Positions 8,622-43,485 of a stretch of 64,000 nt of DNA are shown here, one piece after another. Origin of the DNA: Candidatus Poribacteria bacterium (GTDB lineage Bacteria > Poribacteria > WGA-4E > WGA-3G); assembly GCA_963665235.2 (NCBI GenBank), contig CAXXLX010000002.1:416001-480000 (forward strand), read 5' to 3'. A program made the translations under genes and the position numbers. Each line of letters starts with the position of its first letter. The stretch's first letter is position 1. The notes beneath the pieces are model-generated. The model was not told the origin of the DNA, ran no database searches, and was given only the letters and a program-made list of their open reading frames with translations.

Positions 8622-9950
8622 TTAGCCCTCCCCAGCTTCTGGTACAATGCCCCGGTAGGCACAATCCAAAAGATTGATAGGGTGCATCACTCTCATCGGT
8701 AACCCATGTTTTTGAATACCGAATTGAATCTGTAGGAGGCATCCTGGGTTTCCCGTTGCAACAATATCTGCCTCCGTTTCAGCGATGTATGCTATTTTCC
8801 GTTCCAAAATTTCCTGTGAAAGTTCAGGTTGGGTAATATTATAAATACCAGCACTTCCACAGCACCATTCGGCTTCAGTTAGCTCAATCAATTCAATCCC
8901 CGGTATTGCATTCAGTATGTGCCGGGGTTGAAGTTTGACGTTTTGTCCATGTAGCAGATGACACGGTTCATCGTAGGTAACGCGCTGTCGGATTTCTCCT
9001 GTGGGCGGTATCATCTCAATTTCAGCTAGAAATTCGCTGATATCTTGCATTTTGTGGCTAAATTCAGCGGCTTTGTCCGCGTAAGCGGCATCGCCTTCTA
9101 GGAGCACCCCGTATTCCTTGAGTGCTGCGCCACACCCGGCAGAGTTAATGACAATTGCGTCCAACGTCTCATATCCAAAAGCGTCAATGTTCTGTTTCGC
9201 AAGAGACGTAGCAAAATCCCGGAGCCCGTTATGAAGGTGTAACGCCCCGCAGCAGGTTTGTGCCCGGGGTGTGACGACCTCGCAGCCGTTCTCTGCTAGA
9301 ACGCGAATAGTCGCCAAATTCGTCTCGGTGAAAACCTGATTCATAATGCACCCCGGTATGAAACCGACACGATAGCGGGTTGCCCCTTTGGCAGGTGTTA
9401 TATCCTGTATTGTGTACTTGAGCCGTGGCTGCGGAATTTCCGGCAGGAGCGATTCCATCTTTCCAAGTTGCCCCAATAATTTCAGAATCCCTGTCTTTTG
9501 GACAAGCCAGCGGATACCGAGTCGCTGATAGAGCCACATCAGTTCAAAAATAAGGTCCAACCGTTCTTTGTTCGGTAGAATTTCCTTGAAAACTAGATTG
9601 CTCCAGAATCGATAACTTGTTGAACGTTTCGCGTTTAATTCATAGATGGCGCGTGCCTGTTCAAGAAGTTCGCCAAAGTGAACGCCTGATGGGCAAGCCG
9701 TCTCGCATGCCCGACAGTCCAAGCACCGATAAATGTATTCTGCCCACTCCTCGCTAAGCGGCGTGGCATCCTCCGTTTTAAAAGCACTTCCCATGAGATA
9801 TAACCTGCCCCGCGGTGAATCGGTTTCCAACCCCAATTCTCGATAGGTCGGACAGGTCGGCAGGCAGAGCCCGCAATGTGTGCAAGCATCCCACTTTTGC
9901 CAATTGAAGGTGTTTACGCCGATGAGCGGTTGTGTTTGTTGATTGGGCAT
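8622..9950 (-). CDS. glcF: Glycolate oxidase-type iron-sulfur subunit
   Basis: CTHCGLCLPTCP and CLDCRACETACP 4Fe-4S motifs; two CCG domains; TGNPGC. Confidence 0.85.
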   Translation of the reverse strand: MPNQQTQPLIGVNTFNWQKWDACTHCGLCLPTCPTYRELGLETDSPRGRLYLMGSAFKTEDATPLSEEWAEYIYRCLDCRACETACPSGVHFGELLEQARAIYELNAKRSTSYRFWSNLVFKEILPNKERLDLIFELMWLYQRLGIRWLVQKTGILKLLGQLGKMESLLPEIPQPRLKYTIQDITPAKGATRYRVGFIPGCIMNQVFTETNLATIRVLAENGCEVVTPRAQTCCGALHLHNGLRDFATSLAKQNIDAFGYETLDAIVINSAGCGAALKEYGVLLEGDAAYADKAAEFSHKMQDISEFLAEIEMIPPTGEIRQRVTYDEPCHLLHGQNVKLQPRHILNAIPGIELIELTEAEWCCGSAGIYNITQPELSQEILERKIAYIAETEADIVATGNPGCLLQIQFGIQKHGLPMRVMHPINLLDCAYRGIVPEAGEG

Positions 9951-12446: not shown

Positions 12447-12540
12447 GCGTCAAACAGTTCTCCATCTTTTTTTGAAAAATAAAACAGTTTTTAATATCGT
12501 AACATTTTTGACGAATTTTGTCAAGGAAAAAAATATTGTG

Positions 12541-13035
12541 GGGTGCGTAAAGTTTTTGTACAAAACAGGTGTAAATGTTACACTTTTGACACAAAGTGTA
12601 ACATTCAGTTTTGGGTTCTGAACTCCCTTGAACGCAAGCCCTGTCTATGTTTCAAGCGGTTTCGACCCATTTTTTCCCAGCACAAAAAAAACGTGTTGTG
12701 TCATTTCGACTGCCGGTTTTCGGGTATCTGTCCTGCCTACTTTTCTTACCGTTCTGCCCGAAAAATGTTTTGGTTTTCTGTTATATTATACCATTTTTAT
12801 TAATTATTCTATCATTACCGGTTGTTAGAAATGAAACGGAGAACGGAAGACCCAAACTAAAAGTTTATGCTACAAGAAAGCACACAAACTGGAAGTTTAT
12901 GCTACAAAAAACAACACAAACTGGAAGTTTATGCTACAAGAAAGAGACATTTTCAATTAGAAATGGTATTAGTTGCGAACTGTTTGATTTTTCTTCATAA
13001 AAAATATCGCAGCCGTACAAAAACTTTACACACCC
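12541..13035. mobile_element. MITE family D (9-bp TSD, possibly IS256-like), containing a family A MITE
   Basis: TIRs GGGTGCGTAAAGTTTTTGTAC / GTACAAAAACTTTACACACCC; TSD AATATTGTG at 12532-12540 and 13036-13044. Confidence 0.8.
12789..12968. mobile_element. MITE family A, 180 bp, 3 internal 32-bp REP units
   Basis: TIR TACCATTTYTA; TTA TSD; homologous to 37547-37662 and 49254-49657. Confidence 0.85.
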
Positions 13036-13057
13036 AATATTGTGAAGGGGGGCAGAG

Positions 13058-14254
13058 CTAAACCCATCCTGCAGAGATGAGATGGCGAAGTTCAAGGAGC
13101 AAGCTAGGTTGATGCCTTAGCACCGTTTGGAAAATCTTTCCTAACGTTATCTCTTCGCTGGGGAGTTTAGAGAGGACTTCTGCGTATCCATCAAGCGTTT
13201 CGTCTGAAATAAATTTGAAAATACCATCTCGGATGCGACAGATATGCTTAAAATGTCTACCAATTTCACGGTCCCAACGTTTTGGGTATGCGCTGAGAAC
13301 TTTTTCGGAGACATCCCCGTTACGAATACCAGCCAGTGCAGCTTCAGCAGCGAACTTTCCCGAGTACATCGCGTTAGGAATACCGCCGCCAGATACCGGG
13401 TCGCTGTGATGTGCCGCGTCCCCAACGAGCAGAATGCCGTCTCGGACAATCCGCGGCAAACCCTCTCCAACTGGCACTGCACCGCCCACTAATCCTAAAA
13501 TTCTACCTTCAGGAAACTTCCGTTTGACGAACGCGTTCAGGTAATCTATGGCGAGTTTACCCCCTTTGCCCGAAATATTCGCACGAATGCCAACCCCAAC
13601 GTTAGCAATGTCATCCCCTTTTGGAAACACCCAAACGTACCCAAGCGGGGCAACGTCGCGTCCGAAGTAAAAATCACAACACTCCGGTATAATATCAATG
13701 TTTGACATGAGATATTGAGCACAGGGGCCGATATCGCGTAGTTGGTGGGTTGTATCGATACCTGCCCATCGTCCCACCTGGGATTCAACGCCATCCGCCG
13801 CAATAACCACCTTCGTTTTGCTAGTGTACTCGCGGCCTGAATAACGGAACACGACACCGTTCACAGCTCCGTCATCAGCGGTTGTGACATTTGTGACACG
13901 TGCTTTCACCATTAACTCAGCCCCAGCATCTGCTGCCATCTCCGCAAGCCGGCGGTCGAACACTTTCCGCTCTAGCACATAGCCTGCGTCTGGACAATCA
14001 ATTGTGACAGCAGTCTCGTTGGGTGAGATGATACGTGCGCTGCTTATGCCACAGGATATCCAGGCTGCTTCGGGCTCAATAAATTCGCGCAGAGCCTCTG
14101 CGCTAATACCCTCCGCTCAGCGGAGCGGCACACCTATTTCTTGGCGTTTCTCTAGCAGCAGCACCCGCAATCCGTTTTCAGCGGCAACCTTTGCAGCGAT
14201 GGAGCCTCCTGGGCCCGCGCCAACAACAATGACATCGTATTCCGCATGTAGCAT
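13058..14254 (-). CDS. Geranylgeranyl reductase (DGGR-like FAD oxidoreductase), probable selenoprotein with Sec46, 398 aa
   Basis: [18 protein letters not shown] Rossmann start is in frame with ORF 13058-13978; single in-frame TGA (14117-14119) in GVPLR*AEGIS; YVWVFPK, VGDAA and PVSGGGI motifs. Confidence 0.85.
14087..14103 (-). promoter_or_regulatory. Bacterial SECIS-like hairpin
   Basis: GCGCAGA-GGC-TCTGCGC; G-starting apical loop 20 nt after the in-frame UGA. Confidence 0.7.
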
Positions 14255-14299
14255 TTATCACTTCTCCACAAGTTAATATTAGGGGACGCAGCAGGGTCT

Positions 14300-14518
14300 T
14301 CAGAAAAGGCCTCGGTCCGGATAATCGGGATAGTAAATCTTGCCTTTGCGTTCCATGGAGAGCACACCGATTGGACATCCCTTGACACATTTCATACAAT
14401 CGGTGCACTTCGGTTGGTCAATTTTCAGATGCGTGTCTATCAGGTCAATGATATTTTCGGGGCAGACAGCGACGCATGCGCCGCAATAGACACAGAGCTC
14501 TTCGTTAATATGAATCAT
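14300..14518 (-). CDS. 2x[4Fe-4S] ferredoxin
   Basis: CVYCGACVAVCP and CTDCMKCVKGCP. Confidence 0.93.
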   Translation of the reverse strand: MIHINEELCVYCGACVAVCPENIIDLIDTHLKIDQPKCTDCMKCVKGCPIGVLSMERKGKIYYPDYPDRGLF

Positions 14519-14631
14519 AGTCGGTTTCTCGTTGTTTCATAAGGATATTTTATTAAAAATCAGATATAAACGTTGGACTTGTATAAATAATACCGTATCT
14601 TACAAAAAAAGTCAAGGAAAAATAGCACAGA

Positions 14632-16254
14632 TTAAGGAGCCTTCAGGAGATAGAGGTGGAAACCTTCATCCCCAATCGTTGAACCTGTAAACTGTGCTAA
14701 CAGTGTGAGACCATATTGCTCAAGCAGCTGGGAGTCTAAAGCACGATTCAAAATAATTAGCACGTCTTCGCCGTTTTGTCCGCTTAGGGTTTCAGCTTCT
14801 TGGATAATACCTTCGTTGGAAACGCCGTGTGTTCTCGCTCTGTCCCATCTGACAAATGACCCGAATCGGCTGCCTTTCGGATAATAAATCTGCTTCTTCT
14901 CTAGATATCCGACAACAGTGCTAACAGCAAAATCTGTGTCGCCGACCATCAGCATGTCTTGCCTGCCTTGTGCCCGAATATATTCAGCGGTCCGTTTTCC
15001 ATTAGAGAAAATCTCGAGGATATCCATACTGATAGCGTTGACGCTGCCGAAAAAATGAAAAAGGAGAATGACAGCAAAAATCGGGCTAAAGAGCCGTTGT
15101 GCGAATTCACTGAGTCGGTTGAAGGGTAGGTTTATTTCGGGGCAGTCATAGTAAATCCAACTCGCCGCCACAAATGTGATAAACAGGAAACCGTGATGCC
15201 GTATGCTGCCTCCATACTTGACGTAGAAGAAGGCGAGAAGTCCAATTGTGGCTATCAGATAGGTAAAAAGCGCAGTCGGACGTTTCAAAAATCGGAGGAC
15301 ACACCACACTATAATGAGACAACAGAGCGGAAACCGAATTAATTGAAAGAGGGCAATACTATTAAGCCAATTGCTACCCCAAAACCCTCTCACTGTATGC
15401 GGCACAGGGAAGAAAGGATTGGACATCAGACGGATAATCTGTTTCACACGTTGTCCGTCGAACCTAAAGTTCCAGCCGACAGCAAACCCGGTATCCGCAG
15501 GGGGATTGAGTTGCAAGACGGCTGTTACGATGCCGATGCCGATGAGTATAAATCCGAGCCAGATGCGTCTTCTCCCCTCGGTAAGCAGCTCATGTGCATC
15601 CCCCGCCTTGCAGCAGTAGAAATAGAGGTATTCTACCATGAGAGCAACCCCGATAGCGATGGTCACGATAAGGGCATGTACGCTTGTGTGGGCAAGTAGA
15701 ATTAAGACAATCCCTATCCATACAAATCGTTTATACCGTTCCCTGAAGAGGACGCAGAAAATAGTTATGAGAAGTAAACCGAGGGCATAATTTCGGGCGA
15801 CAATCGCATATTCATAGAGTGCAAAATAACCGAAACAGAAGAGAAGTTTGTGTAACCAATGAAACGGTGCGAAACGTGTAAATAGGAAAACTGTTGCAGC
15901 AGCAATTAGCAGGTGAAACGCCTGCATCATGACAGGTGAGGCACTGATACGGCTGAGTGGCATCAAACAGATATGCCATAAGGCGGGATGCCCTTCATAT
16001 TTCATATTTGCCAGAAGCTCAGAGAGAGACGCGCTATCTCTCGCGAGGAGCCACGCCTGAATTTCGTCTCGCCACATCTCATGGTGTGCCGCTGCGTACC
16101 CGCCGACAAGCAGAAAAAGAGCGGTCATCCCGATGGCGTAGTAGAAATCCTTTTTTGCGGACAGGTTTGACTGTACAGATTGTAGCAATTGAGAAAAATT
16201 TTGGAGGGTCATTGAGTGTTCTATTGCGTCCCTAAACTGGAAATGGGTATCCAT
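14632..16254 (-). CDS. Polytopic membrane protein, GT-C glycosyltransferase-like
   Basis: About 12 TM segments; HHEMWRDEIQAW, YEGHPALW and ARNYAL motifs. Confidence 0.6.
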   Translation of the reverse strand: MDTHFQFRDAIEHSMTLQNFSQLLQSVQSNLSAKKDFYYAIGMTALFLLVGGYAAAHHEMWRDEIQAWLLARDSASLSELLANMKYEGHPALWHICLMPLSRISASPVMMQAFHLLIAAATVFLFTRFAPFHWLHKLLFCFGYFALYEYAIVARNYALGLLLITIFCVLFRERYKRFVWIGIVLILLAHTSVHALIVTIAIGVALMVEYLYFYCCKAGDAHELLTEGRRRIWLGFILIGIGIVTAVLQLNPPADTGFAVGWNFRFDGQRVKQIIRLMSNPFFPVPHTVRGFWGSNWLNSIALFQLIRFPLCCLIIVWCVLRFLKRPTALFTYLIATIGLLAFFYVKYGGSIRHHGFLFITFVAASWIYYDCPEINLPFNRLSEFAQRLFSPIFAVILLFHFFGSVNAISMDILEIFSNGKRTAEYIRAQGRQDMLMVGDTDFAVSTVVGYLEKKQIYYPKGSRFGSFVRWDRARTHGVSNEGIIQEAETLSGQNGEDVLIILNRALDSQLLEQYGLTLLAQFTGSTIGDEGFHLYLLKAP

Positions 16255-17477: not shown

Positions 17478-18881
17478 CAACGTTCCGCTACAAAACCCAA
17501 TCCTTCAGGTTTGGGATGTAGTAGCGGTGCATGAGTTGAAGTTTTAATTTGACTTTCTGACAAAAATGTGGTATAATAGGGACAGCCCCTAACACAAAAT
17601 ATGTCCAAGGAAACAAAGGTGTGTAGTGCGAAACACAAAACACAAACTCTTTCATGATAAGACCTTAAAGCGTCTGCATGACGAGCTTAATATCTGTGGT
17701 GTTGTTCGAAATCACTTCATCGCCTTGTCTATGCGATATTACCGTCGGTATGGTAAAGGTTTGTCGTATTCTAAAATGTCTGCTCATTTAACGAAGCTGA
17801 AGCAACTGAAGAAGTATGCCCATTGGAATATTCCGTATTCCTGGTCGTTACAAAATGTAGTTAAACGCCTTGCTCAATCGTTTAGAGAGATGCGGACGCA
17901 CAAACGCGGGCACCCCCAATTTAAGAAATGCCAAAAGCACAAAGGCATGACGTTTCGCGGTGAGCAAGTTCGTATAGAGAAGTTGCTTGACCAACAAAAG
18001 TATCACAGAAACCACCCAACCTATAGCATTCGCCTAAATGGGGGTTGGTATCGTTTTGCTTTGCATCGCGAGATACAAGGTGAAATCAAAGAAGTTCACG
18101 TCACACGTGACGCACTCGGAGCCATCTATATCACAGTCACTGAAGACTATAACGAAGTCATACCCGAACCTAAGACGGGTAAAGCCGAAGGGTTTGATTT
18201 TGGTATCAAAGACTTCTTGACTAGCAGTGACGCGAAACGATATAGTTCTCCGATGTTCTACCAACAGAATGCTAAAGACCTTGTGTTCGCCCAACGTGAT
18301 TTGTCTCGTAAGGTTACAGGTTCTAACAACCAAGAGCGTGCTAAAAAACGAGTTGCACGTATACACAAGAAAACAAAGACTCAGAGAACAGACCACCATT
18401 GGAAACTTGCTATTGACCTCTGTCGGCAGTTTGATATTCTGTTCTTTGAAGACCTAAATCTTAATGGTATGAAACAGATTTTAGGGAAACAAGTATCGGA
18501 CCTTGCTTTTGGTGAGTTCCTGCAAAAACTTAAACACCAAGCTAAAAAGCGGATCCGCTTTGTGCTAAAGATTGGACGCTTTTTCCCTACAACAAAGGTC
18601 TGTTCTGTTTGCGGACATAAAAACGAAACAATCACATTAGCAGATAGAAAATGGACTTGTCCAAGTTGTTTGACGCACCTTGACCGAGACCATAACGCTG
18701 CTATCAACATTCTAAAGGAAGGGGTAGCTTCCTTTGGCTTAGGAGTCGTCAGACCTATAGTTTTGTCTAACAAGATTGTGGGCTGCTCCGTTGAAGCTTC
18801 TAGTCGGCTTCTGAAATCCACAAATGCTTTCGTCTAAAAATTGTGACGGAAGCCCCCATGCTTTAGCTGGGGGTCTATCAC
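17478..18881 (+). mobile_element. tnpB-only IS200/IS605-family element (IS1341-like)
   Basis: Starts after TTAT; left-end hairpin CCCAATCCTTCAGGTTTGGG; internal TTGACT-17-TATAAT promoter; right end GAAGCCCCCATGCTTTAGCTGGGGGTCTATCAC. Confidence 0.85.
17626..18837 (+). CDS. tnpB: RNA-guided endonuclease TnpB
   Basis: RuvC motifs GFDFGIK, FFEDLN, DRDHNAAINI; zinc finger CSVC...CPSC. Confidence 0.95.
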   Translation: MRNTKHKLFHDKTLKRLHDELNICGVVRNHFIALSMRYYRRYGKGLSYSKMSAHLTKLKQLKKYAHWNIPYSWSLQNVVKRLAQSFREMRTHKRGHPQFKKCQKHKGMTFRGEQVRIEKLLDQQKYHRNHPTYSIRLNGGWYRFALHREIQGEIKEVHVTRDALGAIYITVTEDYNEVIPEPKTGKAEGFDFGIKDFLTSSDAKRYSSPMFYQQNAKDLVFAQRDLSRKVTGSNNQERAKKRVARIHKKTKTQRTDHHWKLAIDLCRQFDILFFEDLNLNGMKQILGKQVSDLAFGEFLQKLKHQAKKRIRFVLKIGRFFPTTKVCSVCGHKNETITLADRKWTCPSCLTHLDRDHNAAINILKEGVASFGLGVVRPIVLSNKIVGCSVEASSRLLKSTNAFV

Positions 18882-39942: not shown

Positions 39943-40027
39943 GCCGGAGTGGTGAAATCGGTAGACGCACTGGACTCAAAATCCAGCGGGCCCTAGGTCC
40001 ATGTCGGTTCGAGTCCGACCTCCGGCA
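39943..40027 (+). tRNA. tRNA-Leu(CAA)
   Basis: Acceptor GCCGGAG/CTCCGGC; anticodon arm CTGGA-CTCAAAA-TCCAG; long variable arm; GTTCGAGTCC; CCA not encoded. Confidence 0.95.
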
Positions 40028-43130: not shown

Positions 43131-43485
43131 GGGGGTGAATTAGGTTTCGACGGAGGTAGTTGCGATATAGGTTGCATGTCGAGGTCTCCGCAGGCCTCGT
43201 TAAATAGGCGGAACAACTATAATTGCTGATCAAGAATTAGCACTAGCTGCTTAATGCAGCTACGCTTGGCTGACCTGTTGCCTGTCAGGGATGCTAAAGC
43301 GCCGCAATACAGGCTAGCGATTTGCGTGTTCTCAAGGGGCAGCTCGCGAAACCAAACTTGAGATAGCTCTTCATGAATCCTGCACAGGGGAGGCTGAACA
43401 GCGAAAATTCAAGCCTGTGATAAGCATGTAGTAGCCTCTATTAATATGCCTTCGGACGCGGGTTCAATTCCCGCCACCTCCATCA
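43131..43485 (+). ncRNA. ssrA: tmRNA, tag (A)ADQELALAA
   Basis: GGGGGTGAA...TTCGAC 5' end; GGTTCAATTCCCGCCACCTCCA 3' end; tag ORF 43225-43254; follows smpB. Confidence 0.95.

Follow-up and report, generated by a model that had tools for sequence, protein, structure and literature searches.

The closest described systems to the gene reported here are the geranylgeranyl reductases (GGRs) of archaea. According to the available portion of PMC6309074, the active-site cysteine of these enzymes, numbered Cys45 in TaGGR and Cys47 in SaGGR, lies directly behind the isoalloxazine. The accessible part of PMC10821996 describes this cysteine as conserved in all archaeal GGRs and essential in the Sulfolobus enzyme, and its role is still speculative both there and in the accessible parts of PMC6309074 and PMC12004948. 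Here we describe a gene of the GGR family on the reverse strand of a 64,000-nt stretch of contig CAXXLX010000002.1, from a metagenome-assembled genome of a sponge-associated Candidatus Poribacteria bacterium (GCA_963665235.2). The codon at the position of this cysteine is an in-frame TGA which is very probably read as selenocysteine (Sec). The whole 64,000-nt stretch is referred to below as the window, and its numbering is used throughout.

Prokaryotic selenoproteins have recently been tabulated as 119 families or subfamilies (PMC13188914, a May 2026 review, Table 1). The sole flavoenzymes in that table are a CoA-disulfide-reductase-like protein and the type III sulfide:quinone reductase. Both resemble the present case in being bacterial flavoenzymes in which a redox-relevant cysteine is replaced by Sec, but they act on thiols, disulfides or sulfide, whereas a GGR reduces the C=C bonds of prenyl chains. 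Nor are they homologous to the reductase at the family level, as neither model is found among the best 25 of its 95 NCBIfam matches; no selenoprotein-specific model of any kind is present among these 25. The original prediction for this locus placed the enzyme outside the classic bacterial selenoprotein families, and the table agrees with this in containing no GGR, TIGR02032 or PF01494-type enzyme. The word 'geranylgeranyl' was not found in the main texts of PMC13188914, deep-Sep and BSepDB, the supplementary tables of which could list the family, and a search of the full-text literature outside subscription journals returned no report of a Sec-containing GGR. The Sec-containing reductase is thus apparently an unannotated, new selenoprotein family in a well known kind of system.

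Reading frame and protein family

Two open reading frames (ORFs) were called in one frame at this locus, one of 306 residues at 13058..13978 (-) and one of 45 residues at 14117..14254 (-), the latter ending at the TGA at 14117-14119 (-). When 13061-14254 (-) is translated with TGA as Sec a product of 398 residues is obtained, in which the single non-standard step is U46 in GVPLR-U-AEGIS. The complete gene occupies 13058..14254 (-), with 398 codons followed by a TAG stop at 13058-13060. It had been proposed from the DNA that the N-terminus missing from the 306-residue ORF lies upstream in the same frame and that the TGA at codon 46 is the sole interruption; the 45-residue ORF is found at the expected place and the readthrough translation contains no other stop.

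The readthrough product matches TIGR02032 with 241.5 bits (cut-off 158.8) and PF22578 (GGR_cat) with 88.1 bits (cut-off 27), together with Pfam FAD-binding domains. It aligns with the Thermoplasma acidophilum enzyme (PDB entry 3oz2) over residues 5-393 with an E value of 3.2e-76 and with the GGR from Sulfolobus acidocaldarius (PDB entry 3atq) with an E value of 1.9e-26. In both alignments U46 is paired with the active-site cysteine, in keeping with the earlier expectation, and with the numbering in the available part of PMC6309074, that GGR/DGGR enzymes have a conserved cysteine near residue 45-47. Cysteine is likewise found in this column in the 12 full-length database homologues that were aligned, which are 48-65% identical. 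The FAD motifs GxGxxG (G12, G14 and G17), RxxxD (R96..D100) and LxGD (G278 and D279) are present and invariant in our protein alignment (A2), as are YxWxFP (Y206-V-W208-V-F210-P211) and GGG (289-291) of the catalytic domain; the names RxxxD and LxGD follow PMC10821996 and the definitions of the other two PMC6309074, as given in the available portions of each. From these profiles, motifs and structural matches, the predicted product is an FAD-dependent enzyme of the GGR family.

Comparison with 3oz2 and with the S. acidocaldarius GGR (PDB entries 3atq and 4opc) indicates homology over the full length, including the FAD, catalytic and C-terminal regions, the motifs and the active-site cysteine column. 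The differences are that the residue is cysteine there and would be Sec here, and that those hosts are archaeal whereas the present host is bacterial. The electron donor also appears to differ: it is probably a ferredoxin here, whereas in the accessible part of PMC10821996 the donor of the Thermoplasma enzyme is listed as 'NADP' and that of the Sulfolobus enzyme, in vitro, as dithionite. A bacterial member of the family, the sterol C-24 reductase Bsr of Myxococcota, retains YxWxFP and the active-site cysteine, lies near sterol genes and groups with MenJ-type reductases according to the available portion of PMC12004948. Unlike Bsr, the Poribacteria gene is found near GGGPS and ferredoxin genes and groups with the archaeal-type and Chloroflexota enzymes.

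Conservation of the TGA codon

We searched 176 Poribacteria genomes, counting E values of up to 1e-60 as matches, and the reductase gene was matched in 55 of them. A single TGA is carried by 39 of the 55 matches; all 39 come from a single order (families f1-f4) and share 68-82% identity with the query, one of them also containing a TAG and one being cut by a contig end. Another 13 matches, from families f5-f11, cover the column and have cysteine and no stop (48-65% identical), and the remaining three (G094, G028 and G068) are partial. The TGA occupies the identical column wherever it is read among the Poribacteria orthologues, being found there in 39 of 39 from this order that reach the position. 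A separate search of contigs gave the same picture, with TGA in 24 of 25 Poribacteria loci, the 25th ending at residue 44, and TGC or TGT in all 55 loci from outside the phylum; the latter include Ignavibacteriota, Chloroflexota, LCP-89, ANME-1/Methanosarcinales, Methanobacteria, Methanomassiliicoccales and Hadarchaeota. Close relatives had been named as a check on the original prediction: these have TGA and not TGC/TGT, and cysteine is confined to more distant relatives. A UGA that is kept in orthologues and aligned with cysteine in homologues is the pattern by which bacterial selenoproteins are recognized.

A maximum-likelihood tree from a quick IQ-TREE search was calculated for 98 distinct proteins, an X being written at the Sec position as a mask, and was midpoint-rooted for drawing only. 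All 34 Sec rows fall on one side of a branch with an SH-aLRT value of 98. This branch is nested within the cysteine forms of Poribacteria, with the form from G057 (65% identical) as its sister, the Chloroflexota enzymes next and the archaeal enzymes on the other side. On this tree, the simplest reading would be a single Cys-to-Sec switch at the base of the Poribacteria order.

The SECIS-type hairpin

Downstream of the TGA we located a candidate selenocysteine insertion sequence (SECIS) at 14087..14103 (-) by folding and covariation. It consists of a 7-bp stem (GCGCAGA/UCUGCGC) closed by the triloop GGC, begins 13 nt past the UGA and has a loop that starts 20 nt past it; the sequence and the distance to the loop agree with the perfect hairpin of the original prediction. 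The core alone has a folding energy of -9.9 kcal/mol. The rules for bacterial SECIS elements given in the Fig. 2 legend of PMC13188914, the part of that source used here, comprise a loop of 3-9 nt, an upper stem of 4-16 bp, a G in the first two loop positions, a distance of 16-37 nt from the UGA and a minimum free energy of at most -7.5 kcal/mol. The window hairpin agrees with every one of these published values (3-nt GGC, 7 bp, 20 nt and -9.9 kcal/mol).

A gap-free alignment (A1) of 32 distinct orthologous sequences indicates that the pairing is conserved. The seven stem pairs are formed in 96.9% of cells, and three of the pairs have changed on both sides: 30:44 (CG/UA/UG), 31:43 (AU/GC) and 35:39 (CG/AU/UA). 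The covariation score is 0.370, compared with 0.214 in shuffles, and was reached by none of 500 shuffles; control structures slid by 1-3 columns score 0.145 or less. The loops are GGC (12), GUC (12) and GGA (8), so that a G followed by G or U is present in all 32 sequences. The peptide encoded by the stem varies (SAEALR, STVELC, GTASLC and GAPALH) while the pairing is retained, which argues that it is the RNA pairing that is conserved and not the protein sequence. When 65 cysteine homologues were scanned, no conserved hairpin was found at the SECIS place. With the TGA kept in one column and the stem covarying, the UGA and the hairpin together stand above chance.

Two further pairings were considered. 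One, rejected as a feature, is a second small hairpin (CUCCGC-UGA-GCGGAG; A1 columns 7-12 with 16-21) that would place the UGA in the loop; its covariation is 0.096, equal to that in shuffles (0.096) and reached by 500 of 500, and this pairing arises because the Arg, Ala and Glu codons are invariant. The other occurs in the closest cysteine forms, L140 and L141 (genomes G047 and G048), where GGGAAC/GUUCUC forms a stem of 6 bp that closes a loop of 4 nt, at an offset of 11-16 after the Cys codon. This lies near the SECIS offset and might be taken as a relic or precursor, but with two sequences it is indistinguishable from chance.

Selection and integrity on both sides of the TGA

Among 37 distinct coding sequences of the TGA form, 34 are intact; these run to 397-398 codons and have no in-frame stop other than that at codon 46. 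Pairwise comparison (666 pairs) gave a median pN/pS of 0.098 in the 45 codons that precede the TGA and of 0.202 in those that follow, with a pS of about 0.75-0.80, meaning that synonymous sites are nearly saturated. Purifying selection acts on both sides of the TGA in one frame, and the relaxed downstream selection raised as a possible refutation is not seen.

A contig of 1,492 nt from a strain about 98% identical, assembled from a metatranscriptome library, covers 13051-14518, from the start of the ferredoxin gene described below to the stop of the reductase gene, with 32 differences and no gaps. Within the reductase gene 21 differences are listed, 20 of them at third codon positions by a hand count, including all five upstream of the TGA; none falls in the TGA or in the hairpin. 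A check of raw reads at the site had also been suggested, and contigs from four of four public runs (two studies) bridge the TGA at 14117-14119 unchanged.

Selenocysteine machinery and other selenoprotein genes

The assembly comprises four contigs (5.31 Mb) and is 92.6% complete. A genomic search for the Sec machinery, proposed together with the original prediction, recovered all four components above their cut-offs: selA (601 bits), which shares its contig with the window; selB (357 bits), followed immediately by the tRNA-Sec gene, selC (78.1 bits); and selD (359 bits), with one TGA of its own. The sole UCA anticodon among the 48 tRNAs predicted by aragorn is that of tRNA-SeC, and TGA terminates 504 of 2282 long frames, the adjacent ferredoxin gene also stopping at TGA; there is therefore no genome-wide recoding and TGA is an ordinary stop codon in this organism. 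Across the phylum selA was found in 163 of the 176 genomes; of the 39 with the TGA form, 38 have it and the exception (G066) is an assembly of 730 contigs.

The genome is rich in selenoprotein genes, at least seven in known families besides that of the reductase. Our own scan, in which an in-frame TGA had to be flanked by coding signal and accompanied by a SECIS-like hairpin, recovered the reductase gene and these seven, which encode an AhpD/CMD-like protein (CxxU), two AhpC/TSA peroxiredoxins (UxxC), two HMA-domain proteins (GMTUGGC), SelD and MoeB. Their hairpins have stems of 6-8 bp and loops GGU, GGA, GUU, GGG, CGUGAC and CGUGCU at 17-24 nt past the UGA, and that of the reductase gene (7 bp, GGC, 20 nt) is within this range. 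The genes lie on contig C1 of this genome (G000) at 1765795, 3284553, 2941446, 2847371, 2949019, 2894848 and 3841045. The TGA occupies redox cysteine positions in these genes; one of the HMA proteins is fused to WD40 repeats and the MoeB is of the MoeB-rhodanese type.

We also note three tandem paralogues of 384, 649 and 527 codons at C1:1204663-1209383 of the same genome (L157 and L158, the third copy lying at C1:1207803-1209383). Each contains one in-frame TGA in the conserved motif ...PL(A/F)DE(S/A)C-U-G(S/T)G(K/R)... and a 6-bp hairpin with an AGGU loop 23 nt past it. No Pfam or NCBIfam match was found for the two copies that were scanned (L157 and L158), and the three may represent an undescribed selenoprotein family.

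Alternative explanations for the in-frame TGA

Several observations count against decoding of the TGA as Sec. Folding of a single sequence does not distinguish the hairpin, since the 66-nt stretch containing it gives z = -0.11 and 94 of 200 shuffles fold equally well or better; the window hairpin alone is within chance and comparison was therefore needed to judge it. When folded alone 20 of the 32 orthologue cores reach -7.5 kcal/mol, the variants of the f4 type (L039, L040 and L055) contain a C.C mismatch, and no Rfam match was obtained for the whole window at the gathering threshold or for 13950-14260 at E values of up to 10. The tree comes from a quick search. The gene is present in only 15 of the 111 other genomes of the window's own family and is dispensable. 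Three Sec-type orthologues are damaged elsewhere, by a frameshift near codon 114 (L041 of G028), a 1-nt deletion near codon 89 (L062) and a change of TGG to TAG at codon 65 (L066, identical to L123, of G141); these lesions may reflect errors of assembly, or else the gene, being dispensable, may be decaying or in the course of being lost. As for expression of the ferredoxin and reductase genes, the contig from the RNA library is a hint and not proof of transcription or translation. At the protein level, insertion of selenium into the reductase is something that we infer from the DNA.

The damaged orthologues, the absence of the gene from most genomes of the family and the insignificant single-sequence fold count in favour of a pseudogene, in which a recent nonsense mutation had changed TGC or TGT to TGA in a cysteine-type reductase and the hairpin was coincidental. 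A recent mutation is difficult to reconcile with a TGA kept in 39 genomes from four families at 68-82% protein identity and nearly saturated synonymous sites, nor would a pseudogene be expected to give a pN/pS of 0.10 upstream and 0.20 downstream, to have a covarying hairpin and to occur in a genome with the Sec machinery. We consider this explanation highly improbable and effectively refuted. It is just as improbable that UGA-46 is a true stop and that a shorter protein (306 residues, or 283-346 residues in the relatives) is made from a downstream start, perhaps together with a 45-residue peptide. Gene callers do give proteins of 283-346 residues in all 56 listed database clusters that are at least 67% identical, none of which is named a selenoprotein. 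However, the called starts are arbitrary and vary between genomes, and they remove the GxGxxG fold and residues 47 to about 92, which are conserved and under in-frame purifying selection, while residues 1-45 are still more constrained (pN/pS 0.098). Loss of the Rossmann beta-alpha-beta unit would leave a GGR unable to bind FAD.

Readthrough with another amino acid would leave the frame intact, and other readthrough routes do occur in bacteria. UGA-46 might then be decoded as Cys, Trp or Gly by a near-cognate tRNA, a suppressor or an alternative code, and our case for Sec is made on sequence, which leaves this explanation a very slight probability. Against it stand the tRNA-SeC as the only tRNA with a UCA anticodon, the use of TGA as an ordinary stop in 504 of 2282 frames, a column that is cysteine in every homologue, which is the signature of a Sec/Cys pair, and a hairpin geometry that matches the other selenoprotein genes of the genome. 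There is a negligible probability that the hairpin, instead of being a SECIS element, acts within the gene as an intrinsic terminator or attenuator. A consensus scan does flag 14103-14087 (-), where the stem is followed by GAAUUUAUUG, but the region has three such terminator-like sites compared with 2.6 +/- 1.6 in shuffles, the U-rich tail encodes a conserved E-F-I and the contig from the RNA library passes through the hairpin unbroken. The fixed distance from a conserved UGA and the absence of the hairpin from cysteine forms fit a SECIS element instead. In our view, UGA-46 is thus very probably a genuine Sec codon of a GGR-family enzyme, as was originally predicted for a selenoenzyme of 398 residues; conservation of the TGA, covariation, the machinery and the selection pattern all support this interpretation.

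Ferredoxin, GGGPS and gene context

A gene for a 72-residue 2x[4Fe-4S] ferredoxin, with matches to Fer4_7, Fer4 and related Pfam families, is located at 14300..14518 (-), 45 nt upstream of the reductase gene. Of 73 related loci, 61 have a ferredoxin ORF immediately before the reductase, the start of which it often overlaps. In L144 and L145, the most distant Poribacteria forms, the two are fused in frame, and many database proteins of 465-480 residues are ferredoxin-reductase fusions. By analogy, the ferredoxin is the probable electron donor of the reductase. The GGR of Methanosarcina acetivorans, which we compare by description, similarly has a dedicated ferredoxin gene at the same locus, and this ferredoxin is its specific reducer in vivo according to the accessible part of PMC10821996; that enzyme differs in having cysteine and an archaeal host. 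Upstream of the ferredoxin gene a consensus scan found a weak promoter-like site, TTGACT-17-TATTAT, at 14587..14615 (-) with 10 of 12 matches; the region contains seven such sites compared with 3.4 +/- 2.1 in shuffles.

A hand comparison of coordinates places GGGPS directly downstream of the reductase gene in 33 of the 55 genomes, and GGGPS is above the TIGR01769 cut-off in 143 of the 176; most of family f1 has GGGPS but no reductase. It adjoins the TGA form in 26 of 39 cases, the 13 exceptions all being from genera g1, g3 and g6 of the window's family. In L050 (family f2) UbiA, an RlmB-like gene, ferredoxin, the Sec-type reductase, GGGPS, hrcA and grpE follow in order. The UbiA prenyltransferase gene runs off the end of this locus, and its best matches are to DGGGP-synthase models, below the cut-off. 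The window's genome likewise has a DGGGPS-like UbiA gene (202.8 bits compared with a cut-off of 296).

From this context and by analogy with the archaeal enzymes, the function of the reductase is most likely the ferredoxin-dependent saturation of the geranylgeranyl chains of glycerol-ether lipids, an assignment that we regard as fairly probable. Other prenyl substrates are possible because the family is promiscuous and includes one sterol C-24 reductase. The assignment also has evidence against it. Archaeal digeranylgeranylglycerophospholipid reductase equivalogs are the top equivalog-type matches, but their cut-offs are not reached (NF041160, 287.6 compared with 780 bits; NF041080, 161.4 compared with 580; NF041385, 88.7 compared with 700), and we therefore assign the protein to the GGR family but not to the archaeal equivalogs. 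The GGGPS gene of the window's genome is on contig C1, next to grpE-dnaJ and away from the ferredoxin-reductase pair. CarS-like PF01864 was not found in this 92.6% complete genome, and a search for glycerol 1-phosphate (G1P) dehydrogenase with PF13685 gave generic Fe-ADH matches only. The substrate assignment is therefore indirect.

The place that GGGPS takes in other families, directly downstream of the reductase gene, is occupied in the window by 611 nt (12447-13057) that are AT-rich (GC 0.355 compared with 0.471 for the window) and ORF-less. No GGGPS remnant was found in this segment by tblastn with E values of up to 10. A 15-bp terminator-like inverted repeat is present downstream of the reductase gene at 12607-12572 (-). 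Directly upstream of the ferredoxin gene, 14632-16254 (-) encodes a 540-residue protein without a Pfam match that looks hydrophobic, consistent with a multi-pass membrane protein. TnpB- and IscB-like mobile-element nucleases are found near both halves of the split lipid cluster: a TnpB-like gene with OrfB_IS605 and Cas12f1-like TNB domains at 17626-18837 (+) of the window, and a weak IscB-like match beside GGGPS on contig C1 (L171:9871-10974, -). Elsewhere in the window we note a GlpC/HdrD-like Fe-S oxidoreductase of 442 residues with two CCG domains, a 4Fe-4S dicluster and no in-frame stop at 8622-9950 (-), a tRNA-Leu(CAA) gene at 39943-40027 (+) and a tmRNA gene with the tag peptide ADQELALAA at 43131-43485 (+).

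Proposed mechanism

In the mechanism that we propose, which for decoding is the standard bacterial one, SelB carrying Sec-tRNA(Sec) would bind the hairpin that begins 13 nt past UGA-46, and Sec would be delivered instead of termination. The bound hairpin would present a G[G/U]N triloop 20 nt from the UGA. Judging from the gene context and the archaeal enzymes, the presumably co-transcribed 2x[4Fe-4S] ferredoxin would then reduce the FAD, and geranylgeranyl chains would have their C=C bonds saturated by the reduced enzyme. As substrates, the likeliest would be chains carried on the glycerol-ether lipids that GGGP synthase and the DGGGP-synthase-like UbiA produce; the genes for these two cluster with that of the reductase in most Poribacteria. 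At the isoalloxazine, Sec would take the place of the essential cysteine as a redox modulator, an electron relay or a proton relay.

Implications

The bacterial selenoproteome would gain a C=C-reducing flavoenzyme of prenyl-lipid metabolism that is unlisted in the sources we checked. If the reading put forward below for the lipids of these organisms is correct, no earlier enzyme of membrane-lipid or isoprenoid biosynthesis would be a selenoenzyme, and the GGR family would have its first Sec member. It also exposes a systematic annotation error, as the close relatives are listed in protein databases in a form shortened to 283-346 residues. The Cys-to-Sec switch would amount to natural mutagenesis of an essential cysteine that has so far been unexplained, and would suggest that the residue is chemically active, as a nucleophile, a redox relay to the flavin or a proton relay, beyond a structural modulator. 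Natural pairs of Sec and Cys orthologues that are 59-65% identical make the question of this cysteine directly testable. GGRs are described as biocatalysts for reduced isoprenoids in the available portion of PMC6309074, and a Sec variant may therefore be of practical use.

For the organisms themselves, the clustering of ferredoxin, reductase and GGGPS genes and the nearby DGGGPS-like gene indicate a bacterial phylum with much of the archaeal ether-lipid toolkit, which bears on the 'lipid divide'. We suggest tentatively, at a little less than an even chance, that a selenium-dependent reductase provides one order of Poribacteria with saturated isoprenoid glycerol-ether lipids of the archaeal type. 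If so, membrane-lipid saturation in these sponge symbionts would be linked to the supply of selenium.

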